A DNA stretch of 32,000 nt. Source: Bdellovibrionales bacterium (GTDB taxonomy: Bacteria; Bdellovibrionota; Bdellovibrionia; Bdellovibrionales; UBA1609). Shown here piece after piece: positions 1 to 13,361 of the stretch (position 1 is its first letter; each line of letters starts with the position of its first letter). Both the position numbers and the translations under genes were made by a program. The notes under the pieces are model-generated. The model did not search any database and was not told the DNA's origin. It was given only the letters and a program-made list of their open reading frames with translations. Where the stretch lies: NCBI GenBank assembly GCA_963692945.1, contig OY843585.1:1170001-1202000 (forward strand), in the 5' to 3' direction.

Positions 1-1113
1 GAGAATTCAAGTCAAAAAATAGAAATTAAAGAAACAAAAGATGAAATTACAGAAATTAATAATTTTATTGAAAAAATTAATCAAGATATCGCAATATATA
101 ATGAAAAATTAAAAAATAAAGATCAAACCCAAAAAAAAATAAAAAATCAATTTTGGCAAATTATGCGTTGGAATTATGACAATGCACTAATTCAGCATGA
201 AAAAAATAAAGATAAAACTGAGAAAAAAATAGAAGAAATAAACAATGAGATAACAGGTATTAACAAAAAAATATCTCTTCAAAAAGAAAATATAAAACAA
301 CAACAAGAAAATATGATCAATATTGAAGGGGCAATAAATAATATCAATAATGGATTGAGAGAATTAGGAATTGAAGGATTCAATATAATAAAATTTCAGG
401 AAAATTCATATAAAATTGTGAGAGAGGGTCAGGAAGAAGGACAGTTTCAAACTCTCAGTGAAGGTGAAAAGATGATTATAAGTTTTCTCTATTTTATGGA
501 ATTATGCAAAGGAAAAGAAAGTAAGGAAGAAGTAGTAAAAAATAAAATTGTGGTGATTGATGATCCAATATCAAGCTTATCACATACTTATATTTTTAAT
601 CTCAGTATTTGGATAAAAAACCATTTTTTTAAATCAGAAAATTATAAACAGATTTTGGTATTAACTCACAGCTTGTATTTTTTTCACGAACTCATAAGAT
701 ACGATAAAAATAGAAAACTTTTTCGTTTTCTAAAACTATCAACAAATAAAATTCAAATTGAAAAAATGGAAGAAAATGAAATAAAAAATGAATACGAATC
801 ATACTGGCAAGTTATTAAAGACCATGAAAATGGCAAAGCATCAAATGGATTGCTTGCAAATAGCATGAGGAACATACTTGAACATTTCTTTGGTTTTATA
901 TATAAAGAAGGACTAGAAAAAAAATTAGAGTCCTTAGGTAAGGATAATAAATTCGAATCTTTTCTAAGGTATATGAATAGGGAATCTCATTCAGATGCTA
1001 TAAATATCACTGATGACAAAGAAATAGATTCAAAACTTTTTAAAGATGCTTTTAAAGAAGTATTTACTAAGTCTGGCTATGAAGAACACTATAAAAATAT
1101 GATGAAAACTTAA
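1..1113 (+). CDS. AAA_13-type (PrrC/RloC-like) ABC-fold ATPase, C-terminal ~370 aa; 5' end lies upstream of the window
   Basis: Frame 1 is open from nt 1 (ENSSQKIEIKETKDEITEINNF...), so the 316-aa track ORF starts at an internal Met. A Lys/Glu/Asn coiled-coil insert is followed by the ABC-signature-like LSEGEKMIISFLYF, Walker B IVVIDDPISSL and LTHS. This layout is typical of AAA_13 ATPases. The Walker A motif is not in the window. Confidence 0.6.
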   Translation, partial: ENSSQKIEIKETKDEITEINNFIEKINQDIAIYNEKLKNKDQTQKKIKNQFWQIMRWNYDNALIQHEKNKDKTEKKIEEINNEITGINKKISLQKENIKQQQENMINIEGAINNINNGLRELGIEGFNIIKFQENSYKIVREGQEEGQFQTLSEGEKMIISFLYFMELCKGKESKEEVVKNKIVVIDDPISSLSHTYIFNLSIWIKNHFFKSENYKQILVLTHSLYFFHELIRYDKNRKLFRFLKLSTNKIQIEKMEENEIKNEYESYWQVIKDHENGKASNGLLANSMRNILEHFFGFIYKEGLEKKLESLGKDNKFESFLRYMNRESHSDAINITDDKEIDSKLFKDAFKEVFTKSGYEEHYKNMMKT

Positions 1114-1656: not shown

Positions 1657-2301
1657 ATGGCTTTAATTAAGAATAGTAAAGGTAAGGAAAATAGCGGATA
1701 TGTCCATATATTTGGCAATGAAAAACTAGGAAGGCTTATTAGTCGTGTTCATAGTGTTTCTAATAAAAATGGGCAAGAACTTAAAAACCTTATAAAAAAA
1801 TATTCAAAACAAATTCTTATAGATAAAAAAAAAGATATAGATAAACAAATAAAAGAATTTTTAAATAGTAGACAATCAGGAATATACCTTCTAAGTGTAG
1901 GAGATATAAAGCATAGAAAAAAACTAAAAGGAATGCAACCAGACTTCATTATTTTTAATAAGATAAATAATAAAAACCTAAAATGTTATTTATTGAAAGT
2001 TACAGACTCTTATAGGATAAGCAAACCTTATACAACAACCATAATAGATTCGATGGAAAAATTTAAATTTAAACATATAAATTTTCATTATAAATATTAT
2101 TGTTGTTTCAATGAAAGCACTAAAAACCAAGTTAGAAAAGGATTTGGAAATAAAATTAGAGAAAATCAATGTTTAACTGGAAAGGATTTATGTAAGCTAT
2201 TGAAAATTAATTATCAAGAAATAAAAAAAATAAGACAAAAAGACCAAAAAGATAATTTAAATTATTTTGTTCAAGAATTGAAAAGTATTTTTAAACTTTG
2301 A
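1657..2301 (+). CDS. Hypothetical basic protein (214 aa), function unknown
   Basis: ORF tightly coupled to the 93-aa ORF. It is Lys-rich and has a QPDFIIF...CYLLKV segment only loosely reminiscent of PD-(D/E)XK. No secure family assignment. Confidence 0.45.
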   Translation: MALIKNSKGKENSGYVHIFGNEKLGRLISRVHSVSNKNGQELKNLIKKYSKQILIDKKKDIDKQIKEFLNSRQSGIYLLSVGDIKHRKKLKGMQPDFIIFNKINNKNLKCYLLKVTDSYRISKPYTTTIIDSMEKFKFKHINFHYKYYCCFNESTKNQVRKGFGNKIRENQCLTGKDLCKLLKINYQEIKKIRQKDQKDNLNYFVQELKSIFKL

Positions 2302-2450: not shown

Positions 2451-4037
2451 TCATTCTGCAATTTCATCTATACATTTAATAATAAAATCTTCTAGAGTTT
2501 TAAAATCTTTATTCAATTGCTTTGCATCTTCTAATTCGTAAAACGAGTCATGTTTGCTTATATTTCCTCTAGAAGCAATTTCATTAATAACATTTTTAAA
2601 TCCATTTCTCTTATTTTTATTATACCAGTCATTTATTTTACTATCATAAAAACTCTTAAAAGAAGTACTTCTGGGCTTACCCATATAACAAGATAAACAA
2701 TCTAGAAAAGCCCAACCACCTATATAAGCTAAATAAGGATGTTCTACCAGAGATATTTTACAAAGCGAATTATATAAATAATATAATTTTTTATGGGTTA
2801 AATTTTCTAACTTGTCGCTAATATTATTTACAAGCAAGATTTTTGTACTACTTAAGGAGGTCGCTTTTTTCCTTTCCTCTTGTCCTTTTTCCGATCTTAC
2901 TATAATATTTTTATTAGAGATTACTGACATTACACTAGGAGTATCTTTATTTGATTTTTTGTCTTGTTTAGAGCGATAGTTATTAACTTGATCAATAAAT
3001 TTATCTTTTTGCAGTTCTTTTTTTAAAATAATGTACAAATCATGAATATCAGTAAATTTTGTTTTCATAAAATCAATTTCAAAATCATCTAAATGAAGTT
3101 CTCCATATATCCTTTCACTTGCATATTTATTTTTAGTTCCTGATAAGATTTTTGGACGATTAGGAGTTATAAGAGTTCCTTCAATTACTCTATTATTTCT
3201 GAAAAGCCGTATACCAGGTTGTTCGTAACCACCTTTTTTCATAATTACACAAAATCCTTTTACTTTACTTCCTTTATAATCTAATTCAATTTTCTTTTTC
3301 CATAATCTTGTTTTAGATATACTTTCCATCTTATTATTTACTAAAGGATAATTTAATGTTTCTGAAGGTTCAAAATAAGCTTTCGTCTTTTTTTTCCATT
3401 TTTTTGGTAAAATTTCATTATCATATTCAACATCTATTGATAAAAAATTTTTAAATTTTATAAATGTTTCTGCTAAATGAGGGATAACCATATCTTGATA
3501 ATATTCTTTTGACTCTATTCTTTTAGAATTTTTTATAATAATTTTTGTGTAATGATTCTTTTGCTTTTCAATTTTACTAGAAACAGAAACTGCTGTTTTA
3601 TTTTGTTCTAACAATTCATCAAGATTAAATTGAAATATCAATTTTTCTTTAGAATTTAAAGATGAGGTTTCAATTTCCCAATTACTACTGAACCATACAG
3701 CAGATGTTTTCATTCCTATACCGAATTTTGAAAGACTTGATTTTTTATGATTAACACTTACTCCCATTTTAATAGCTTTTTGAAAGTTTTTTCTATTTAT
3801 TCCACTAGCATTATCTAAAATAATTATTTCTTTCTTTTTACTATCTATAGAAATTTTTATCTTTAATTTTATATTCTTCTTTTCAATAACTTGAATAGAC
3901 TTTCTATTATCTATATAAGATTGAACAGAATTATCCACAAATTCTGAAAGAGCAGAATGAACAGAATAAGGTTGATTTTGTAACCATTTATACATAGTCA
4001 TTTCTGGAGAGACATCAACTTTAAAAGAATTAGACAT
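2451..4037 (-). CDS. GHKL (HATPase_c_3) MORC/paraMORC-like ATPase with an unknown ~130-aa C-terminal domain
   Basis: Bergerat-fold motifs are present: EFVDNSVQS (N box), ILDNASGI (G1), KFGIGMKTSAVW (G2), HYTKIIIKN. These are followed by GIRLFRNNRVIEG and IYGELHLDDFEIDFMKTKF segments, as in prokaryotic MORC-like proteins. The gene is co-oriented with the upstream C5 methyltransferase and starts 151 nt downstream of it. Confidence 0.7.
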   Translation of the reverse strand: MSNSFKVDVSPEMTMYKWLQNQPYSVHSALSEFVDNSVQSYIDNRKSIQVIEKKNIKLKIKISIDSKKKEIIILDNASGINRKNFQKAIKMGVSVNHKKSSLSKFGIGMKTSAVWFSSNWEIETSSLNSKEKLIFQFNLDELLEQNKTAVSVSSKIEKQKNHYTKIIIKNSKRIESKEYYQDMVIPHLAETFIKFKNFLSIDVEYDNEILPKKWKKKTKAYFEPSETLNYPLVNNKMESISKTRLWKKKIELDYKGSKVKGFCVIMKKGGYEQPGIRLFRNNRVIEGTLITPNRPKILSGTKNKYASERIYGELHLDDFEIDFMKTKFTDIHDLYIILKKELQKDKFIDQVNNYRSKQDKKSNKDTPSVMSVISNKNIIVRSEKGQEERKKATSLSSTKILLVNNISDKLENLTHKKLYYLYNSLCKISLVEHPYLAYIGGWAFLDCLSCYMGKPRSTSFKSFYDSKINDWYNKNKRNGFKNVINEIASRGNISKHDSFYELEDAKQLNKDFKTLEDFIIKCIDEIAE

Positions 4038-4054
4038 TTAAAACCTCTTTAGCA

Positions 4055-4140
4055 AACCAACTTTATTTGCTGGGCTAATTATTTAACAATCCTTGCATCT
4101 ACAATATCTTTAAAAGATTTGAAAGATAAAAATTCACTTT
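4055..4140 (-). pseudogene. Decayed remnant of a C5-methyltransferase 3' end (motif X region)
   Basis: 86 nt at 4055-4140 align without gaps, at roughly 80% identity by eye, to 4195-4280, the last ~28 codons of the intact methyltransferase. The offset is exactly 140 nt. The remnant frame contains a stop, and the GNAV motif has degenerated (KDIV). Confidence 0.55.
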
Positions 4141-4188
4141 TACACACTGGGTTAGTAACTTAATTTTATTTGTTTATCTAAAAAATTT

Positions 4189-5445
4189 TTATAAAACCAG
4201 ATTTATTTGTTGAGCTAATAATTCAACAATCTTAGCATTTACAGCATTTCCAAAAGATTTGAAAGCTAAAGATTCACTATCTGGTATAAAGGATAGAGAA
4301 TGTAAATTTTGTAACTTTGCAGCTTCAAGTTTAGATATATATCTCATTTCAAACCCAATAATAGGTCTTTGTGTGGAAGTCATAGCAACAAGTGAAGGTA
4401 TTTTATGAGGCTTCAATACACGAATACCAGAAGCTCTAAATTGCAAAATATGTTCCGATAATACATAATTATCTTTAGATCCTCTCCATTCTAGTATTTG
4501 CCAACTATTATAATTTTTATTCAATTCTTTTTTCCAACTATTTAAAAACCTTTTATTTTTCTTATATAAATTTCTAGTATAAACCACAGAGTTTTTTAAC
4601 CAATCAGGTACTTTATTTGCTTTTCTTACATAGGAAGGTAGTCGAGAAAGCAAATCATTTCTGGAAGTGCAGTTATTTAATTTTTCTCCATAAGATCCCT
4701 TATATTTATACATATCTTTTAAACTTATTTTTTTAAAATTTAAAGGATAAGTGGCTCCTATTTCTGAAGCCACAATAGATACAGATGAAAGAGTATTAAT
4801 CTTACAGTTATCTAATAATTTTTGCCATTGCTGAATTTGAAGTTTTTTTTCTGATTCTATTTTTTTATGACTATCAGAAGAAATGAGTATATCTTTTAAT
4901 TGTTTCATGGATTGTTTTTTATTTGGCCATTGAAACTTTTTTAAATGTTTATTACTTTTAAATCCTAAAATAAAAATACGTTTTCTATTTTGAGGAATAC
5001 CAATGTCTAGCGGAGAAATGACTTTATAAATAACTTCATAACCTAATTTATTAAATGAATTTTTAATAAATTTCCAAAATTTTCCACCTTCAATATTTAA
5101 TATATTAGGTACATTTTCTAAAATTAAAAAATCTGGAGAGTGATATTTTGTAATTCTCAAGATATCCTTAATTAATTTTCCTGAATTTGGACATTTATAT
5201 CCATCTTTTTTCCCTGCTAATGAAAAAGACTGACAAGGAAATCCTGCACATAAAATATCATGCTCTGGAATATCTGTCTCACAAATTTCTCTTATGTCCC
5301 CTTTAGGTTTAATACCAAAGTTTTTATAGTAAAGTTTTTGTAACTGAGTATTGATTTCAGATGCAAATACACATTCAAAATTTCCTGCATTGAGTAACCC
5401 TTTATGAAATCCACCAATACCAGAAAAAAGATCAATAAATTTCAT
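4189..5445 (-). CDS. DNA (cytosine-5)-methyltransferase
   Basis: The canonical C5-MTase motifs are all present: I FSGIGGF, IV GFPCQSFSLAGK, VI ENVPNIL, VIII QNRKRIFILGF, X GNAV. A long variable (TRD) region lies between VIII and X. Confidence 0.93.
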   Translation of the reverse strand: MKFIDLFSGIGGFHKGLLNAGNFECVFASEINTQLQKLYYKNFGIKPKGDIREICETDIPEHDILCAGFPCQSFSLAGKKDGYKCPNSGKLIKDILRITKYHSPDFLILENVPNILNIEGGKFWKFIKNSFNKLGYEVIYKVISPLDIGIPQNRKRIFILGFKSNKHLKKFQWPNKKQSMKQLKDILISSDSHKKIESEKKLQIQQWQKLLDNCKINTLSSVSIVASEIGATYPLNFKKISLKDMYKYKGSYGEKLNNCTSRNDLLSRLPSYVRKANKVPDWLKNSVVYTRNLYKKNKRFLNSWKKELNKNYNSWQILEWRGSKDNYVLSEHILQFRASGIRVLKPHKIPSLVAMTSTQRPIIGFEMRYISKLEAAKLQNLHSLSFIPDSESLAFKSFGNAVNAKIVELLAQQINLVL

Positions 5446-5671: not shown

Positions 5672-6649
5672 ATGAATTTAAAATCTAGTTATACTAACAA
5701 AAAAGGATTTTTTTTGGGTGAAAAAAATTTAGAACAACTAAATGACTTAGGTCTTATCACGGAAAATATCATTTCTCCAAGTAAAGAGATGCTTGCCTAT
5801 GAAACCTTGTGGGCTATCCATGATATTAAAGAGAAAATGTTAAGAGAACTTTTTAGCAATCACATTCCATCTAAAGCTTTACTGGAAGTATCGTCAGCAC
5901 AAGCTGATTTTTTTGAACCAGAAAAATCTTTAAATGAAACTGAAAATAAAGTTAGTGTATTTTTAGAAGAGCAATCACTGGATCAAAATCATTTTTCATT
6001 TATTGTAAATAAAAACTTTCAATGTCCTGAAGTTTTAATGAAAGAATATCCTGTCGGATTATTTTACTACAAAGGAGATTTAAGTTTTCTAGAAACAAGA
6101 CTGATTTCCATAGTGGGTTCTAGAAAGCCATCTAAAGAAGGAATAACAAGAGCTCAAAACTTAGCTAAAGGATTGGTTGAAGAAAATTTTACTATTGTAT
6201 CTGGCTTAGCAGAAGGGATAGATGCATCGGCTCACAAATCAGCTATTGAAAATAATGGCAGAACCATTGGAATTATAGGAACACCAATCAATGAATATTA
6301 CCCTAAAAGTAATAAAAAATTACAAGAAGAGATTGAAAAAAATCATCTTCTTATAAGTCAGGTTCCGTTTTATAGATATGCTAATGAACCTTTTTCCAGT
6401 CGTAAATTTCATTTTCCAAGAAGAAATAAATTAATGGCTTCCATATCAGAAGCTACTATTGTTGTGGAAGCTTCGGACACAAGTGGTTCTCACTCTCAAG
6501 CTAGAGAATGTCTTAAACAAAAGAAAAAATTATTTATACTAGATTCTTGTTTTAATAATGAAAAAATTAAATGGCCTAAGAAATACTTAGAAAAAGGAGC
6601 TATTAGAGTTAAAGAACTTTCAGATATCTTAGAAAACATCAATGAGTGA
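5672..6649 (+). CDS. dprA: DprA/Smf-family (SLOG Rossmann) protein, lacking a long C-terminal winged-helix extension
   Basis: EYPVGLFYYKGDLSFL...ISIVGSRKPSKEG...IVSGLAEGIDASAHKSAI...GIIGTPINEYYP...RRNKLMASISEATIVVEASDTSGSHSQARE matches the DprA core. SD GAGGGAG lies upstream of the ATG. The gene is divergent from the methyltransferase. Confidence 0.8.
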   Translation: MNLKSSYTNKKGFFLGEKNLEQLNDLGLITENIISPSKEMLAYETLWAIHDIKEKMLRELFSNHIPSKALLEVSSAQADFFEPEKSLNETENKVSVFLEEQSLDQNHFSFIVNKNFQCPEVLMKEYPVGLFYYKGDLSFLETRLISIVGSRKPSKEGITRAQNLAKGLVEENFTIVSGLAEGIDASAHKSAIENNGRTIGIIGTPINEYYPKSNKKLQEEIEKNHLLISQVPFYRYANEPFSSRKFHFPRRNKLMASISEATIVVEASDTSGSHSQARECLKQKKKLFILDSCFNNEKIKWPKKYLEKGAIRVKELSDILENINE

Positions 6650-6695: not shown

Positions 6696-8612
6696 TCAAT
6701 CTTGATTCTCAAAATATTTTAAAATACCTTGTAATAATTTATTGTATTCATCTTCAATATTTTCATATTTTAAATTTTCAAAAATTAGATTCTTAGTTTG
6801 TTTAATTATGTCATCAATTTCTTTATCTAAATCAATCTGTTTTTTTTGCTTTAACCAATTTTTGATATTTTTAATATTGTTTCTTTCCTTTAAAATATTT
6901 TTATCAAATTTTAAATCTCTTATATCTTTATCATTTAAAACCTTGTTTACCTGCTCTACAATAAAATTATTTTTTATAAAATCTTCACCTGTTACTGCTT
7001 TAATTTTTGAATCAATATCCTGATAATTTTTCCAACTCCCAAATATTTTCTGCTTTTTATGTTGTTTCTTGTACTGTTTAGCCGTCTCGTCACTATCACT
7101 GATAATTAAGCATTTTCTTTTTGCCAGCTCAATTAATGGAGTAATTGTTTTTATATTTTTTACACCTTTAACATGACAAAACCCTATTTCTTTAAATTTT
7201 TCTTTTATTTCTTCAGTCTGTTGTTCTAAATATTTTTGAAATAAAAATTTATCTCTCCATCCTTCAAAAATAATATTTTTTTCTTTTAAAAAATCAAAAG
7301 TGGAAAATCCAAGAGCATTATATAGCAACTCTTCCTCTGTTATATTTGATTCTTCCGCTTGACTGATATTAGTAATTTCATTTTCCTTTTTAACTATATA
7401 ATGTCGATCAATATCACTAGAATCAATCATAAAGATAGAATGTGTGCTATAAAGAACATAATTCTTATTTGCAATTTTAATCAACTCATCTCGTAAATAA
7501 CGAGCTCCGCTTGGGTGTAAGTTTATTTCAGCCTCATCTACTAAAATCAATGTATTTTCTAATAAATTAGTTCTTACACGTGTTGAAATCATTAACAAAA
7601 AAGTAATAAATCTTTTAAAACCATCACTTCGTTTATCAAAATCATAAATATTTCGTTCTTTTATTCCAGGTATAATAAGATCACTATCTTTTTTAAGAGA
7701 AAATTCTATATTTTTATATTCTTTCCATACTTCTCTGAAATGACTTGTAGTTTTTCTTGCAATACCATCAAGATAATTTTGAAACTGATTTGAACTATAT
7801 CCTTTTTTACTCATAATATCTTCTGAGATATTTCTAATACCTGAAAGAGTAAACATATTTTTTAAAGGTATACAAGAATCTGGATTATTTGCAAATCCAT
7901 CAATATCTACAGATCTAGGTAACAAATTTTCTTCTTTATACTCCCAAAATATAATTTTTGGTAAATTTCTTTTTGTGATATCTGAAATAATACCTCCAAC
8001 TAATTTCTCTAAGTCTTGAAGCGTAGCATCTTCTAAATAATCTTCTGGAAGATCGGACCAATCTTTGAGTTTAATTAATGGCCATTTTGAAAGAAGATAT
8101 GCTTTATCTTTTAATTTTAACTGATAATCAGCAGGACAATTCTTACTTGGCTTCATCCATCCATTCAATAAATTAAATCCATCTTCTAATTTATAGTAGT
8201 TACAATTTTTATTTTCATTTAAAATATCAACCTGATATAATCCTTTATTTTGAGTATTACAAAAACCCTTTACAGATTGATTTTGACCATTCAAAGATAC
8301 AATTTCTGGATTCTCTTCATCTGAAATAATGTATGATGATAAAATTGTAAATATTTCATCTAACTCTTTTTTTTCAAATTCAAAGATGAATTTCACAAAT
8401 GACTTTTCAACTATATCTTCATCAGGTAATGCTTCTCTTTGATCTCTCAGTTTTTCTGGTTTATAACTATCCCCCAATAAAGACAATGCTTTTAAAATAT
8501 TGGATTTACCAGATTCATTTATACCTACAAGCACACGACAAGTAGGATTAAATTTAAATGTAATTTCTTCGATAGAACGAAAATTTTTTATATTCACTTG
8601 TTCAATTTTCAT
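6696..8612 (-). CDS. OLD-family nuclease (N-terminal ABC-type ATPase + C-terminal Toprim)
   Basis: N-terminus MKIEQVNIKNFRSI...GINESGKSN (Walker A); LILVDEAEINLHP (Walker B); STHS. C-terminus IIFEGWRDK (Toprim Glu) and LIISDSDETAK (DxD). Confidence 0.8.
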   Translation of the reverse strand: MKIEQVNIKNFRSIEEITFKFNPTCRVLVGINESGKSNILKALSLLGDSYKPEKLRDQREALPDEDIVEKSFVKFIFEFEKKELDEIFTILSSYIISDEENPEIVSLNGQNQSVKGFCNTQNKGLYQVDILNENKNCNYYKLEDGFNLLNGWMKPSKNCPADYQLKLKDKAYLLSKWPLIKLKDWSDLPEDYLEDATLQDLEKLVGGIISDITKRNLPKIIFWEYKEENLLPRSVDIDGFANNPDSCIPLKNMFTLSGIRNISEDIMSKKGYSSNQFQNYLDGIARKTTSHFREVWKEYKNIEFSLKKDSDLIIPGIKERNIYDFDKRSDGFKRFITFLLMISTRVRTNLLENTLILVDEAEINLHPSGARYLRDELIKIANKNYVLYSTHSIFMIDSSDIDRHYIVKKENEITNISQAEESNITEEELLYNALGFSTFDFLKEKNIIFEGWRDKFLFQKYLEQQTEEIKEKFKEIGFCHVKGVKNIKTITPLIELAKRKCLIISDSDETAKQYKKQHKKQKIFGSWKNYQDIDSKIKAVTGEDFIKNNFIVEQVNKVLNDKDIRDLKFDKNILKERNNIKNIKNWLKQKKQIDLDKEIDDIIKQTKNLIFENLKYENIEDEYNKLLQGILKYFENQD

Positions 8613-8746
8613 AAAAGATACTCTTTCGTTTTTGGATAAATTCTTTTTAAATCATTAATACAGAGAAGAAGTCAATGTTTTTTAAGATAAATCTTTCTAT
8701 AATTTGACAATCTACATTAGAAGTGTCCTAGTAGATTTATAATCTT

Positions 8747-8775
8747 AAAAAACGAAAGCGAGTTATAAAACTCGC
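8747..8775 (-). terminator. Rho-independent terminator after the DUF5131 gene
   Basis: On the minus strand, GCGAGTT-TTAT-AACTCGC (7-bp stem, 8758-8775) is followed by TTTCGTTTTTT. A second imperfect hairpin (CCTTAATAGT/ACTACTAAGG) lies at 8781-8804. Confidence 0.55.
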
Positions 8776-8892
8776 CTCGTGCCTTAATAGTCGCAACTAC
8801 TAAGGGATGTTGATAGCAATGTTAGTTTATTTCCTAAGAAAATCAAGTTTAAAATTTAAAGACATGCTTTACAGCTGAAATTCTTGGTTAAT

Positions 8893-9612
8893 TTACAGAA
8901 AATAACGAGGCATTTGATCCCAAGTGCGTCCTTCTAAAATACGACCTGTCTTATGCTTTCTAACTCCACCCCATTGTTTAAAAAAGAAAGGAACATTCTT
9001 TGCTACACATTGATCTCTGATTTCAGTCACCCATTCTGGTTTCATAGGACGAGCCTTTGGGCCTGATTCCCCACCAACAATAACCCAATCAATTCCCTTT
9101 AATTTTAATCTCTTTGGAAGATGCCCTAAAAGAGGTTCTATAGACAAAAACTTTACCTTTGCCTGTGTCTTTAAGAGATGGTCAATTCTGCTTAAATAGT
9201 TCTTATTTTCTATACTGACACCCATCCAAATATTTTTTGTCCAATTCAACTTTGAAGATAATTTTTCCAACCTATCTGCTCTTTTTGTTAAGACTTGGAA
9301 TTGATGTTGAGGGCAGTTGTTCATCACATCAAAAACTTTTTTAATAAAATCCAAAGGACTATCTTTATGAAAAAGATCACTCATAGAATTTACAAAAATT
9401 ACTTTTGGCTTTTTCCATTGCATAGGAATATTTAAAGCCTGTTTATGAAAAGTCAGTTTAAATCCATTTCTATAATTATATTGTTTCATATTTTGCAGTC
9501 TGTAGGACATCCTCTCTGCATAACAATTTTTACATCCAGGACTGATCTTATTACAACCAGTCAAAGGATTCCAAGTTGCCTCTGTCCATTCAATACTTGA
9601 TAGTGTCGCCAT
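8893..9612 (-). CDS. Phage Gp37/Gp68-family protein (DUF5131, three-Cys motif)
   Basis: The N-terminus [30 protein letters not shown] is the hallmark of this family (Cx6CxxC). It lies 13 nt downstream of the TcmP-like gene. Confidence 0.8.
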
Positions 9613-9625
9613 CTCTAACCTGTTT

Positions 9626-10525
9626 TTAAAATTTCTTTAAAATATCCTTAGCAATTTTAACTCCTACTCTATTTTCAGCAGCAAAACAAAATAAAAACAA
9701 AGGATTGTTTTTTGAATTATATAATTTTGCAGGGTTAGTTGCTACTTCTTTAAATACAGTTTTAAGTCTTTTTATAAAAAACCGACCTATTTCATCCAGA
9801 TTTACTTTTTTTATTAGGTTATTCCCTTCATTTTCAAAAAATGCTGTTTGAGAATCTGTCTTGTAAAACCTAGATTCCCAATCTGTTGTACCAAACAAAT
9901 TATTTAATATATCCCTATGTTGCTCATTTATTTGCCCATCTTTTCTCAAAAGTCTATTCACACCTACTCCCAAAGGAAATAAAACCCATAAATCTATAGC
10001 CTTTGTCTGTGCAATAGATTTAATAGTTTCCCATTGAATTTCCATACCAAAAGGATCAAGGAACATAACAGCACGATGACTTTTCCAATTCCTTTTACAT
10101 AATTCTTGAATATATTTATTTGCATCTCTATTTATCATTTTTATTTTATCTTTTAATATTGGATATTTATCTTTTAGTTTTGACAATTCTTTAAAATTTT
10201 TTTCATTTTTTTCAATAAAGATATATTCTTGAAATAATGGTTGAACTTCCAGTGCTTTTACTGCTGAACCTTTTATAAAATTTAACTCCTCTGTATCTTC
10301 TTCTAAAAGAGGATAAGTATCTGATTTTTTTCTCCGAGATACTCTATATCCAGTTCCAGCAAAGGCATCAATATAAGCAAAATTAAAACTTTGTCTATTC
10401 ATTATTTTAGAATAAGCAGATAAATATTTATAAAGTATCTCAAGTTTTTGATTTGTCCAATCACCACCAAATTTTTGATTTGTTATTTGTTTATACATTT
10501 TATTTTTTTCTTTGCTTTGGTCCAA
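9626..10525 (-). CDS. Three-Cys-motif partner protein TcmP-like (methyltransferase-like fold suspected)
   Basis: [23 protein letters not shown]...[12 protein letters not shown] resembles the TcmP N-terminus and a DxFAGxG SAM-motif-I-like element. It shows the canonical pairing with a Gp37/Gp68 gene. Confidence 0.6.
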
Positions 10526-10765
10526 ACTTACCCCGTTCAGCTACTGGCAATCATATCAATAATTAATTTTTTATCTATTGAAAAAAATATTTTTTGCTTA
10601 GCACAAACTTATTTTAAATAAAATTGCAATCACTAAAAAGAAAAATCTAAGTGGCATGTTTTTTGCATATCTACTACCTCAACATATCTAAATAACTCTT
10701 ATTATTTCCTATCACTATAGAAAAGACTAGATTTTGTAGTCCCATTTATGGTATTATCATAAAAA

Positions 10766-10915
10766 ATGATGCATGCATCTTTGGAGTTTCAAGAGTGGTT
10801 AGAAGAACTTCCTTTGAGAACTCAATATGGAGGAGGTAAAAATGGCCAAAAAAAAGACATCAAAAAAGCAAAAATTCTTGCTCAAAGATATGCCAAAAAT
10901 GAATCTAAAGAGTAA
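10766..10915 (+). pseudogene. Collapsed RelE/HigB-like 'addiction module killer' remnant (49 codons)
   Basis: The small ORF MMHASLEFQEWLEELPLRTQYGGGKNGQKKDIKKAKILAQRYAKNESKE joins a killer-family N-terminus (F.EWL..L) directly to the family C-terminus (GG.K..Q.KDI..AK). The ~50-residue core in between is missing. It overlaps the antidote start. Confidence 0.5.
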
Positions 10916-11168
10916 AAAAGGAATTAAACCTTTTACAGCTTCTAAGAATTTAAAAAATAAAAATTATGTAAAAAAAGTTCTTTTTGGCTGCTTTGTTCAT
11001 AATGACATGGAAGGCTTTAAAGAAGTGTTGCGAACTCACTTTGATCTTGTCAATAAAGATGAAGTTATTAAAAAAGTTAATATTTCTAAAACCACTTTTT
11101 ACCGAACTTTATCAAAAAAGAGCAACCCTACTCTTAGGAATATATCAAAACTTCTTAAAGCGATTTAG
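10842..11168 (+). CDS. HTH 'addiction module antidote' (HigA-like) protein
   Basis: The C-terminal HTH reads VNISKTTFYRTLSKKSNPTLRNISKLLKAI. The track ORF starts at 10827, but GGAGGAGG at 10829-10836 is a strong SD for the ATG at 10842. Confidence 0.65.
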   Translation: MAKKKTSKKQKFLLKDMPKMNLKSKKGIKPFTASKNLKNKNYVKKVLFGCFVHNDMEGFKEVLRTHFDLVNKDEVIKKVNISKTTFYRTLSKKSNPTLRNISKLLKAI

Positions 11169-11277
11169 TGACAAGCCGTTAGTCGTAAGTTATTCACTTT
11201 ACAGTAAGGCACTCACTTTATAACAAAGCGTCTCAAAACAGAGAAATGTATTCTATTTTACAAAGAAAGATATTAAG
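11067..11277 (+). repeat. Direct repeat copy 1 (3' end of antidote gene + ~110 nt downstream)
   Basis: 11067-11209 equals 13357-13499 with only 2 mismatches in 143 nt. Similarity then continues with two indels (about 20 nt and 8 nt) to ~11277/13540. Confidence 0.9.
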
Positions 11278-11634
11278 TAATGATCTTACTCATACCAACC
11301 AGATATCATTAAATAACATCTAGTTTTTAGTTTTATTAAAACATTCAAGCCATAACCTCCATGCAATTTCTTGACCACTCTGCCATACTGAAATTACTAA
11401 ATACCAATGCAATGCCTCATACCAACAATTATTAACAACTCAACCAGTACAACCAATAAATCAAACTTACAACATTCAAATATTTTAACGTTATTATTTA
11501 CTAAAGCAACACAGACAAAAGAATTGACTCTCTTTTTTAAAATGGTTTAATTGTAGCAACACAGACGCTACTTTGAGTATAATCAAGTCAACGATGTTTT
11601 TTTTAATTGATTAGTATTAACTAGGGCAATAAAA

Positions 11635-12864
11635 ATGGCTTCATCTTCTAAATTACCTGTAAATATTGAAACTCTAAAGTGGGCTAGAGAGAATGCTGGT
11701 TTTACTCAAAATGATGTTCCAGATTTTGATTCCAATGATATTAAAAAAATAGAAAAAGGTAAAAAAAATATCACTCTAAAAGAAGCTAACACCTTAGCAA
11801 ATAATTATGGAGTATCTATACACATATTTTCACTTCCTCCTAAAGTAAGTTTAGACAGTAGCATTAAAGATTTTAGGAAACTTCCAGATTCTAAAAAACA
11901 TGTTTACAGTAAAGAGTTAAGACTCTTCATAAACAAGATGAAATATAGACAAGAATGGATGAGAGACTACTTAAAAGAAGAAAACGTTAGCCCTCTTAGT
12001 TTTATAGGTTCAGTGAATGTTAAAAACACTAATCTACAATCTGTAGCAGAAGAAATTGTAAAAACATTTTTTCAATCCAGACAAAAATATTTCAATTTTT
12101 TTAGAACGAAAAAGAAAATAAAAGAAACGCTCAAAGATAGAAAAAAAACTAAAGAACAGTTTCTTAATGATTTGATAAAAAGATTAGCAGATTATGGAAT
12201 TATTACTTTAAAATGTAAGGGGTTTGATAACAATAATAAAATAGATCTTGAAGATGCTAGAGGGTTTGTTTTAATAGACAAATATGTTCCATTTATTTTT
12301 ATCAATTCTTCAGATCACATAACAGCACAAATTTTCACTCTCATGCATGAGATAGTTCATATATTTATAGGTGAAGAAGGAGTTTCAGGCAATTTAGTAA
12401 AAAATAACAGTAACCAGATAGAGTTATTTTGCAATCAAGTTGCATCAAGAATACTGTTGCCAGAAAAAGATTTAAACATCACTTCTATTGATAAACACTT
12501 TTTTGAAAATAAAATCAGAAAAATATCAACTTCTTTCTTTATAAGCAAACTATCTGTTTTATTAAGGTTAAAAGAAATCTCTTTAATAACATCTAAGAAT
12601 TTTGATAAAAAATGGAATGAATATCAAAAAGATATGAAAGAATGGATAAAAACTCAAGAAGAAAACAAGGAAAAAAACAAAGAAAGAAATACTAACAGTG
12701 GTAATTATTACAATACAGCAATTAGCAGAAGAAATAGACAGTTTATCAAATCAGTCTATGGAGCTTATCAACATAAATCTATTACAGCCTCACAAGCATT
12801 GTCTCTCTTAGATGTAAACATGAAAACATTAAAAAAACTATATCAAAAAGCTATCAAGAAGTAA
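11635..12864 (+). CDS. XRE-type HTH fused to ImmA/IrrE (DUF955, COG2856) zinc metallopeptidase
   Basis: N-terminal HTH (LKWARENAGFTQNDV...ITLKEANTLANNYGVS). The HExxH motif lies in FTLMHEIVHIFIGEE. The gene ends 8 nt upstream of the PIN-like gene. Confidence 0.8.
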   Translation: MASSSKLPVNIETLKWARENAGFTQNDVPDFDSNDIKKIEKGKKNITLKEANTLANNYGVSIHIFSLPPKVSLDSSIKDFRKLPDSKKHVYSKELRLFINKMKYRQEWMRDYLKEENVSPLSFIGSVNVKNTNLQSVAEEIVKTFFQSRQKYFNFFRTKKKIKETLKDRKKTKEQFLNDLIKRLADYGIITLKCKGFDNNNKIDLEDARGFVLIDKYVPFIFINSSDHITAQIFTLMHEIVHIFIGEEGVSGNLVKNNSNQIELFCNQVASRILLPEKDLNITSIDKHFFENKIRKISTSFFISKLSVLLRLKEISLITSKNFDKKWNEYQKDMKEWIKTQEENKEKNKERNTNSGNYYNTAISRRNRQFIKSVYGAYQHKSITASQALSLLDVNMKTLKKLYQKAIKK

Positions 12865-12872
12865 GAAATAAA

Positions 12873-13361
12873 ATGATTTATTGTTTAGATACAAATTTAT
12901 TTATTGAATGTTGGAATAATTATTATAGAAATACATTTTTTAATCAGAAAAATTTTTTTGATTTATTAAAAGAAAAATCTTCTTTTTGTGATTTATATAT
13001 TCATGAACAAGTTAAGATTGAGCTTCAAAAAAAAGACGATGAACTCCTAAATTGGTTTAATGAAAATATAGATATTTTTAAATCATTTGATAATAAAAAT
13101 AACGAAATTATGGATACATATATTAAAATTAACAAAAAATATCCAGGGTTAAAAAAGAATAGTCCAGATTCAGCAGACCCTTTCATTATAGCATCTGCTA
13201 TAGTTTTAAAAGGTAAAATTGTTTCTGATGAAAGAGGAGGAGGTCAACTACCTCAAGAAAGAAGTAAATATAAAAGCATACCACAAGTATGTGTTGCAGA
13301 AAAGATAGATCATTTAAGTATTTTTGACTTTATCGAAGAAGTTAAAATTAAATTTAATTAA
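12873..13361 (+). CDS. DUF4411 PIN-like nuclease-fold protein
   Basis: The N-terminus MIYCLDTNLFIE has a PIN-type acidic residue, with later acidic positions (SADPFIIASA, VSDE). It shows the canonical pairing with an ImmA/IrrE gene. The stop codon falls in the first bases of repeat copy 2. Confidence 0.6.
   Translation: MIYCLDTNLFIECWNNYYRNTFFNQKNFFDLLKEKSSFCDLYIHEQVKIELQKKDDELLNWFNENIDIFKSFDNKNNEIMDTYIKINKKYPGLKKNSPDSADPFIIASAIVLKGKIVSDERGGGQLPQERSKYKSIPQVCVAEKIDHLSIFDFIEEVKIKFN

Follow-up and report, generated by a model that had tools for sequence, protein, structure and literature searches.

Among described systems, those closest to the gene pair studied here are found in the PDC collection of PADLOC, which comprises 145 untested candidates whose homologues are embedded in BREX, DISARM or type I restriction-modification (R-M) systems (Payne et al., bioRxiv 10.1101/2024.01.29.577857). 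PDC-M41 is composed of TcmP (for three-Cys-motif partner; component A) and a DUF5131 protein (component B), and PDC-M30 combines the same DUF5131 component with a longer partner which is again TcmP-like. In the present work, we analysed a stretch of 32,000 nucleotides from a Bdellovibrionales bacterium (assembly GCA_963692945.1, contig OY843585.1, positions 1,170,001 to 1,202,000), hereafter called the window. On its minus strand, a TcmP gene (9626-10525) is followed by a gene of the DUF5131 (phage Gp37/Gp68) family (8893-9612). Both components are present, adjacent and on the same strand, and the pair is an instance of PDC-M41 with no structural difference, a label which is silent on mechanism and activity. 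It differs from PDC-M30 in that the TcmP protein has no PDC-M30A match; the PDC-M30A models have 368-372 positions and the PDC-M30A-like protein of S. meliloti 1021 pSymA has 415 residues.

The pair had thus already been named by NCBI and catalogued, which lowers the novelty of the locus, and DUF5131 was already listed as a subgroup of the radical S-adenosylmethionine (SAM) enzymes; the cataloguing and the subgroup had both escaped the first-pass annotation. No functional study of TcmP or DUF5131 was found in the searchable literature, where no paper mentions PDC-M41; in this respect, the opinion of a first-pass annotation, made from the sequence alone, that the pair has no experimentally defined function still holds. 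Two studies in which PADLOC PDC systems were tested did not include PDC-M41. What is new here is the fold assignment of both proteins, the interchangeability of DUF5131 with canonical radical-SAM partners, the recurrence of operons in which the pair lies between a restriction endonuclease gene (Res) and a methylase gene (Mod), and the convergent layout of the pair in phages. In our best explanation, to which we give about even confidence, the pair would be a mobile, SAM-dependent module of two enzymes that modifies nucleic acid in phage or mobile-element conflict.

The 299-aa product of the upstream gene matched the NCBIfam profile TIGR04474 with 214.9 bits (cut-off 53) over profile positions 1-261 of 263, which secures the earlier assignment to TcmP, and PADLOC PDC-M41A with 371 bits, nearly end to end. 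The profile search returned no Pfam family for it. The family itself is large, with 4,797 clusters (50% identity) at E <= 1e-3 and 1,172 at E <= 1e-30. Structure prediction followed by Foldseek, a check proposed by the first-pass annotation for both proteins, was carried out and gave a methyltransferase fold for TcmP and a partial TIM barrel for DUF5131. The AlphaFold2 model of TcmP, built with 30 homologues (predicted local distance difference test score, pLDDT, 86; predicted template modelling score, pTM, 0.84), has the strand order of class-I SAM methyltransferases, with a disordered variable loop at residues 52-73. Every Foldseek match of probability 1.0 was a class-I SAM enzyme, and the best folds in the PDB were 2oo3 (DUF519), Trm1 (3axs) and RlmJ (6qe5), with E values of about 1e-5 and template modelling (TM) scores of 0.46-0.50.

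The alignment of the 30 homologues places the conserved residues where such a fold would need them. Motif I, after strand beta1, reads IDAFAGTG, and its D, F, A, G, T and G are invariant; the DxFAGxG element in which SAM binding had been suspected is therefore a fixed feature of the family, and both the SAM-binding Rossmann methyltransferase fold of the model and the Foldseek matches agree with that suspicion. E96, which ends beta2 (IFIE), is invariant, and the DAN triplet after beta3 is invariant or nearly so. Motif IV, after beta4, is D-P-[FY]-G-M (LDPFGM in the window), with an invariant D-P-x-G in which x is F or Y. We conclude that TcmP very probably binds SAM and that it resembles methylases of exocyclic amines on flipped-out polynucleotide bases; it may also be an active methyltransferase.

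The enzymes that the model resembles most are RlmJ/DUF519, which forms m6A2030 in 23S rRNA, and Trm1, which forms m2,2G26 in tRNA. Neither has significant sequence similarity to TcmP. RlmJ has D-P-P-Y where TcmP has D-P-[FY]-G, and TcmP has in addition two parts of its own, a conserved FGGxWTxxKL helix at the N-terminus and a domain at the C-terminus. Moreover, RlmJ and Trm1 are housekeeping enzymes that stand alone, and TcmP is a mobile protein with a radical-SAM enzyme as its partner. A weak profile alignment by hhalign between TcmP and E. coli RlmJ (E 0.0027, probability 11%) pairs IDAFAGTG with LDTHAGAG at motif I and, with one gap, FLDP-FGM with LIDPPYEM at motif IV. Trm1 presumably carries DPFG. 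Searches of the PDB by sequence and by profile, with TcmP as well as with DUF5131, gave chance matches only (IFRD2, PPR, PAN3, ferritin), so that the comparison of folds was the one informative route.

The second protein is 239 aa long and matched PF07505 (formerly phage Gp37/Gp68) with 347.1 bits (cut-off 28.9) over positions 2-243 of 243, so that the partner gene had been named correctly. In PADLOC it matched PDC-M41B (406.7 bits), again over nearly the full length, and PDC-M30B (395.5 bits), and it also matched phrog_2045, to which no function is assigned. DUF5131 is classified as radical-SAM subgroup Megacluster-5-2 (SFLD/RadicalSAM.org), beside spore photoproduct lyase at 5-3 (PMC9477430). 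In agreement with this, the protein is homologous to TIGR04471, 'radical SAM mobile pair protein A' (99 bits, E 2.5e-28), at a score well under the equivalog cut-off. The Cx6CxxC triad (C20, C27, C30) and a fourth cysteine, C202, are invariant in 30 DUF5131 homologues, as are a GGESG element and an FFF-QWGG block. In the AlphaFold2 model (pLDDT 82), six beta-alpha units come after the Cys loop and make up the partial TIM barrel. Its best folds in the PDB were lipoyl synthase (human and mycobacterial) and spore photoproduct lyase (E 4e-3 to 1e-2, TM 0.38-0.55), the last of these with the highest query TM-score, 0.55. Membership of the radical-SAM superfamily therefore rests on the curated classification, the TIGR04471 homology and the fold rather than on a canonical motif. 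As radical-SAM enzymes are iron-sulphur (Fe-S) proteins, the earlier reading of the triad as a metal or Fe-S centre is borne out at the level of the superfamily, and DUF5131 would hold a [4Fe-4S] cluster.

In order to establish how regularly the two genes occur together, one genome per GTDB species was scanned for TcmP loci. This gave 586 confirmed loci, the best 80 of which, from many phyla, were examined. DUF5131 lies directly downstream of TcmP on the same strand in 66 of the 80, with a gap of about 0-64 nt or an overlap. It is arranged otherwise in four loci, where the order is reversed, an ORF (open reading frame) is inserted, the copy is disrupted, or a divergent copy is convergent. Seven loci, five cyanobacterial and two verrucomicrobial (metagenome-assembled genomes, MAGs, of Pedosphaera sp. 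and of Verrucomicrobia subdivision 3), have instead a canonical CX3CX2C radical-SAM partner, and the remaining three end too near a contig edge for assessment. Thus, a radical-SAM protein stands beside TcmP in 77 of the 77 assessable loci, 70 times of the DUF5131 type and seven times canonical.

The two canonical partners that were tested matched PF04055 with 37.6 and 49.6 bits. The canonical partners are most similar to the PA0069 and Rv2578c families and to 'radical SAM mobile pair protein B' (TIGR04470, about 46 bits). We take the PA0069/Rv2578c families to be SplB-like 'DNA repair photolyase' proteins, and DUF5131 and the canonical partners presumably belong to the same branch of the superfamily, that of spore photoproduct lyase (SPL). 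The replacement of DUF5131 by a canonical enzyme in seven loci is independent evidence that DUF5131 itself works as a radical-SAM enzyme. The canonical partner in Lyngbya sp. PCC 8106 (locus L011, 7227-9191, minus strand) has 654 aa, where its counterparts in related loci have about 322. The surplus is an insertion of some 335 aa with LAGLIDADG-like blocks, which begins exactly at the third cysteine of the CX3CX2C motif (GCLHGCTF|C...THN|CYVPS) and looks like an intein that splits the Fe-S cluster motif.

The viral data point in the same direction. In IMG/VR, 59 viral contigs carry TcmP, and DUF5131 is adjacent in 58 of them; the conserved pairing assumed by the first-pass annotation is thus strong in genomes and viruses alike. 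In 52 of these 58 cases, the two genes are convergent with overlapping 3' ends, which means that the linkage is kept without co-transcription. The layouts differ accordingly between hosts and viruses: phage and prophage contigs are mostly convergent, including the phages of loci L084 and L086, and bacterial chromosomes carry a co-directional operon. On a Leisingera plasmid, DUF5131 precedes TcmP. A fusion of TcmP to a radical-SAM protein, looked for as a sign of physical interaction, was not present among the best 150 TcmP-family matches. Three long proteins were considered as fusions and discarded: the 552-aa P0242 is a tandem TcmP duplication, and the 412-aa P0243 and 382-aa P0273 carry unrelated N-terminal extensions. 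TcmP and DUF5131 would, in our interpretation, be physical partners.

The window pair may be compared at this point with the 'radical SAM mobile pair' (protein A, TIGR04471, and protein B, TIGR04470), which is also a two-gene module, 'mobile' by its family name only. DUF5131 is homologous to protein A and the canonical TcmP partners resemble protein B. All these scores fall well short of the equivalog cut-offs (355 and 410 bits), which sets the window pair apart from this system, and its partner is a methyltransferase-fold protein rather than a second radical-SAM enzyme.

The relationship to spore photoproduct lyase raises a different explanation, namely that DUF5131 reverses a DNA lesion by radical chemistry with TcmP as a recognition or accessory subunit, the location in defence islands being incidental to mobility. 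SplB and the SplB-like proteins would share their partial TIM-barrel radical-SAM core with DUF5131 as modelled, the grouping in Megacluster-5 and the fold with the highest TM-score speak for such a role, the alternative partners belong to families that we take to be SplB-like, and in phages DUF5131 occurs among recombination and replication genes. However, DUF5131 differs from SplB by its Cx6CxxC motif, by the lack of a PF04055 match and by being about 100 residues shorter, and nothing in the comparison indicates a lesion-repair role. Repair would also leave unexplained why the protein is obligately paired with one that keeps the full set of SAM-methyltransferase motifs, and both the patchy, mobile distribution and the flanks, which are enriched in defence families and not in repair genes, argue against it. 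We therefore regard repair as highly improbable.

The same set of folds bears on the possibility that the pair converts a free nucleotide or metabolite into an inhibitor of replication or transcription, or depletes SAM during infection. Prokaryotic viperins provide a precedent for radical-SAM defence effectors that work without a nuclease, the pair contains no obvious effector, and the Foldseek matches of TcmP include enzymes acting on small molecules (NNMT, COMT, spermidine synthase, AzeJ). Yet neither protein matches a PADLOC pVip model (for DUF5131, PADLOC gives PDC-M41B and PDC-M30B only). Macromolecules are the substrates of the nearest radical-SAM relatives (DNA for spore photoproduct lyase, protein for lipoyl synthase), and the best TcmP matches are polynucleotide methyltransferases. 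Finally, no nucleotide kinase or other partner from nucleotide metabolism is conserved nearby. An action on small molecules is, on balance, very unlikely.

The genes that surround the pair in other genomes were then considered. Of the three closest TcmP relatives, one has AbiEi/Eii, a PLD-SNF2 helicase, an integrase and a methylase of the MmeI type as neighbours, another has NYN and RhuM/Fic proteins, and the third directly follows a STAND NTPase, with a reverse transcriptase nearby. For a small proxy of enrichment, 135 non-redundant proteins at positions -2, -1, +2 and +3 were searched against PADLOC at E <= 1e-8. They matched 271 models, and 101 control proteins located 5-7 genes away matched 25, a comparison which counts models and not proteins, the R-M families of PADLOC having many models each. 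The matches of the flanks were type I, IIG and III R-M, HmaC, MADS, SoFic and PDC-S02, PDC-S09 and PDC-S28. A local association of the pair with defence genes is thus supported semi-quantitatively, as the first-pass annotation had suggested should be examined.

On pSymA of S. meliloti 1021 (locus L087, 1250381-1263223), a TcmP gene of the PDC-M41A type directly follows hna, whose product matches PDC-S28; one of the 80 genome loci also has a PDC-S28 neighbour. hna is a validated defence gene, and in a published table hna and the TcmP gene that follows it are induced together (PMC12445080). The 415-aa PDC-M30A-like paralogue and a DUF5131 gene converge on hna-TcmP, giving two TcmP-type genes for one DUF5131 gene at this locus.

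Clustering of the neighbours of the 77 loci revealed no third gene universal to the pair, and no cognate nuclease conserved beside it as an R-M system would have. Res-like genes are found beside the pair in eight loci (about 10%). In at least seven loci from different phyla, the order is a restriction endonuclease of the BPTD_3080 family (NF046055, 1205 bits), TcmP, DUF5131 and an N6/N4 DNA methylase of about 900 aa, all on one strand with gaps of 0-37 nt (L007, L017, L028 and L038; also L010, L019 and L020). Two further loci (L062, L080) have a methylase just upstream of the pair. Judged from the gene order, the Res-TcmP-DUF5131-Mod loci may represent a functionally coupled R-M variant, going beyond mere embedding.

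These operons are among the observations that favour a rival explanation, according to which the pair puts a protective mark on the DNA of its own carrier (chromosome, prophage or plasmid), either as the modification arm of an R-M-like system or as a means for mobile elements to evade host restriction, and would not itself attack invaders. Its co-directional nesting between Res and Mod is one such observation, and a motif IV that is like that of amino-methyltransferases is another. Phages give further support. Among 50,697 phage records, DUF5131 was found in 181 and TcmP in five; the DUF5131 phages are mainly actinophages, together with Burkholderia, Rhizobium, cyanobacterial and haloarchaeal viruses. 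In several phages, DUF5131 comes after a DNA methyltransferase gene among the recombination and replication genes; prophiT36-2a and Gordonia phage Bakery are examples of such a neighbourhood, and TcmP-free DUF5131 perhaps works there with other methylases. The occurrence of DUF5131 in phages without TcmP, often beside DNA methylases in early regions, leaves room for a DNA-modification or anti-restriction role. Against self-protection, no nuclease is conserved beside the pair over about 140 loci (an OLD-like gene occurs once outside the window, Res-like genes in the fraction given above), and the R-M systems in which the pair is embedded already have their own methylase. In addition, in BaxterFox, a temperate phage of Gordonia, the pair is flanked by the integrase and the immunity repressor, in a lysogeny region that is a typical site of host-protecting genes. 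A self-marking function is unlikely, but it ranks first among the rivals.

Two observations were made on the viral records themselves. In BaxterFox (KU963263.1), positions 32200-32928 (4001-4729 of locus L084, plus strand) contain a full-length DUF5131 ORF with 53% identity to the window protein. The deposited annotation has small hypothetical genes, 39-41, on the opposite strand instead, gene 39 being called 'metallo-protease' in the RefSeq copy, and the record is probably mis-annotated in this interval. An unusual nearness of the pair to the ends of viral contigs was also considered; about 27 of 59 are no more than 6 kb from an end, not clearly in excess of what would be expected, and the idea was dropped.

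The nesting between Res and Mod recalls PrrC, a system that Payne et al. (bioRxiv 10.1101/2024.01.29.577857) cite as occurring almost only within type I R-M systems. Like PrrC in EcoprrI, the pair is in at least seven loci an accessory module nested among R-M genes. The two are not homologous, PrrC being an ABC-ATPase anticodon nuclease, and the window pair is not R-M-embedded. By analogy, a guard-type coupling of the pair to R-M is a matter of speculation.

The distribution of the pair is patchy over many phyla, and the pair is present in prophages, on plasmids and next to integrases. Furthermore, DUF5131 varies very little, and its homologues in several phyla share 68-80% identity with the window protein. 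The sporadic distribution, combined with a DUF5131 identity of 70-80% between distant lineages, indicates horizontal transfer. These facts have to be set against the explanation that the pair performs an accessory or housekeeping modification of a tRNA or rRNA nucleotide and tunes translation with no part in conflict. The closest TcmP folds, the rRNA m6A enzyme RlmJ and the tRNA m2,2G enzyme Trm1, would suit that explanation, many radical-SAM enzymes modify RNA, and some Blastocatellia and Poribacteria keep the pair in a conserved neighbourhood with a housekeeping rather than a defence look. Nevertheless, horizontal transfer, the presence on mobile elements and the enrichment of defence genes among immediate neighbours all argue against it, and of the explanations considered here it appears to be the least probable.

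We thus return to a module that modifies nucleic acid in conflict. In such a mechanism, TcmP would bind SAM and a polynucleotide, would probably present a flipped-out base, and may methylate its exocyclic amine. DUF5131, with a [4Fe-4S] cluster held by the Cx6CxxC triad, would cleave a second SAM molecule to a 5'-deoxyadenosyl radical and perform radical chemistry on the same site. The effector step would accordingly change nucleic acid covalently instead of cutting it with a nuclease. The substrate is taken to be nucleic acid and the phenotype to be defence, and the module may act in either direction, on invader or on self DNA or RNA. A more detailed version holds that an RlmJ-like, base-flipping TcmP hands a specific base of invading or infection-exposed DNA or RNA to the SPL-clade radical-SAM enzyme, the result being a radical-derived modification, crosslink or lesion not described before that blocks phage replication, and that the pair nested between Res and Mod is a PrrC-like back-up for the case in which R-M is inhibited. 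This version, which would make the pair a new type of nuclease-free immune effector, is quite unlikely.

Several points weigh against a nucleic-acid-modifying defence module. For DUF5131, there was no PF04055 match at E <= 0.01, the motif is Cx6CxxC and not the canonical CX3CX2C, and the structural matches are weak at the E values and TM scores given above. The hhalign comparison of DUF5131 with the canonical radical-SAM partners was not significant (E 0.04-0.11); it sets the Cys triad on CX3CX2C with a three-residue insertion and was not used as evidence of homology. For TcmP, the closest folds are rRNA and tRNA methyltransferases at modest TM scores, with the RlmJ alignment at the low probability already quoted, and motif IV lacks the canonical PP(Y/F). 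The pair contains neither a recognisable effector (nuclease, pore or NADase) nor a sensor, and the excess of DUF5131 over TcmP in phage records implies that DUF5131 has TcmP-independent roles. The enrichment comparison depends on the counting of models, and some Blastocatellia and Poribacteria loci have the conserved neighbours of a housekeeping look mentioned above. Finally, no experiment on the pair was found, and other PDC candidates failed when tested.

At the locus itself, the spacing of 13 nt and the coordinates reported by the first-pass annotation are correct. The TcmP gene (9626-10525, minus strand) reads as an ORF of 299 aa from a TTG at 10525, and its start is ambiguous, the public gene call being 290 aa from an ATG at 10498. 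TcmP homologues start about 8-10 residues ahead of the conserved FGG, which makes the ATG at 10498 the more likely start. The DUF5131 gene (8893-9612, minus strand) begins with ATG. The spacer between them (9613-9625, minus strand), read directly from the sequence, is aaacaggttagag and carries a GG-rich element, GGTTAGAG, that resembles a ribosome-binding site. This arrangement implies a probable co-transcription of the two genes and possibly a coupled translation.

The pair had also been credited with its own terminator. A hairpin does lie between the DUF5131 stop and the OLD gene, as a single consensus prediction: the terminator-like element with its T-run spans 8745-8778 on the minus strand, with a stem-loop at 8778-8755 whose stem of 10 pairs includes four GC pairs and is followed by CGTTTTTTAA. 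It is situated 115 nt past the DUF5131 stop and ahead of the co-directional OLD gene. One terminator-like site was found in 8400-11000 for 0.8 expected by chance; the position is meaningful, the count is not, and this one consensus hairpin is suggestive only. Upstream of TcmP, the consensus scan gave a candidate sigma-70-like promoter at 10550-10577 on the minus strand (TAGATA, 16 nt, TG-TATGAT with an extended -10), but in DNA as AT-rich as this, promoter-like sites are no more frequent than in shuffles and the promoter evidence is weak. An Rfam scan of 8400-11700 gave no credible element (sole match DnaX, 19 bits, E 0.53), and a repeat search of the same interval found nothing meaningful in or around the pair.

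Profile searches, including those against PADLOC, showed that the first ~14 kb of the window form a defence island, and the placement of the pair between an OLD nuclease and toxin-antitoxin (TA) modules was described correctly. The OLD nuclease contains AAA_15 and an OLD-like TOPRIM domain (113.7 bits for PADLOC Old). What had been called TA modules comprises, in order, a small helix-turn-helix (HTH) ORF, an ImmA/IrrE-HTH protein of 409 aa with a DUF4411 protein (11635-13361, plus strand, 1.1 kb from the pair) and a SocA/Panacea protein. The small ORF, of 113 aa (10827-11168, plus strand), matches neither Pfam nor PADLOC; its start is overlapped by a 49-aa ORF (10766-10915, plus strand), both being divergent from TcmP, and by eye the two look like a degraded killer/antidote pair of the HigB/HigA type. 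In an unrelated MAG of the Chromatiales (L064, 2759-4593, plus strand), a pair homologous to the ImmA/IrrE-HTH and DUF4411 genes lies upstream of TcmP at a distance of about 4.6 kb.

OLD was considered as a third component of the system and rejected, given the intervening hairpin and the fact that an OLD-like gene follows DUF5131 in one other locus only. In that locus (L020, 2862-4880, plus strand), a 672-aa OLD-like ATPase comes directly after DUF5131 and is 23% identical to the window OLD (E 2e-12). The window and L020 are the only cases among about 140 loci, and the proximity is probably a coincidental co-embedding.

The island starts with the C-terminal part of an AAA_13/PDC-S06 protein (163-1113, plus strand). 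About 320 C-terminal residues are matched (profile positions 400-723 of 727 only), and the ORF begins after a stop codon, 162 nt from the window edge, so that it is probably a truncated or disrupted gene. Next comes a type II restriction endonuclease-like ORF (1657-2301, plus strand), and then two minus-strand genes (2451-5445), in window order that of a 528-aa GHKL-ATPase protein (HATPase_c_3) with a PD-Lambda-5_A-like C-terminus and that of a 5-methylcytosine DNA methylase, the methylase gene being the upstream one on its strand; together, the three may constitute a composite R-M or methylation-linked system. A DprA/SLOG protein (5672-6649, plus strand) matches the Shosta component ShosA with 271 bits. 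No ShosT-like gene adjoins it, its neighbours being the 5-methylcytosine methylase and OLD on the opposite strand, and it is perhaps an orphan, or else a DprA-like defence gene of another kind. Past the island, ordinary genes are found (ParA-like, GGDEF protein, glutamate dehydrogenase, dihydroorotate dehydrogenase). No tRNA gene flanking the island was found.

As a further instance of a catalogued candidate, the window pair is no discovery in itself. Its interest lies in the family: TcmP is a sizeable family with neither a Pfam model nor a known function, and it is always tied to a radical-SAM enzyme, of which the canonical type has no PADLOC model as a TcmP partner. Its genes cluster next to those of restriction and other defence systems. 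The system is small (1.6 kb, two genes) and hence easily testable. Mutagenesis and the choice of homologues can start from the invariant Cys triad and the methyltransferase motifs, from the radical-SAM partners that replace each other and from the Res-TcmP-DUF5131-Mod operons. To our knowledge, viperin is the only known radical-SAM defence effector, and it acts on free nucleotides. If the modification of nucleic acid proved true, the TcmP-DUF5131 pair would add polynucleotide-directed radical-SAM chemistry to the defence repertoire and could reveal a new DNA or RNA modification.

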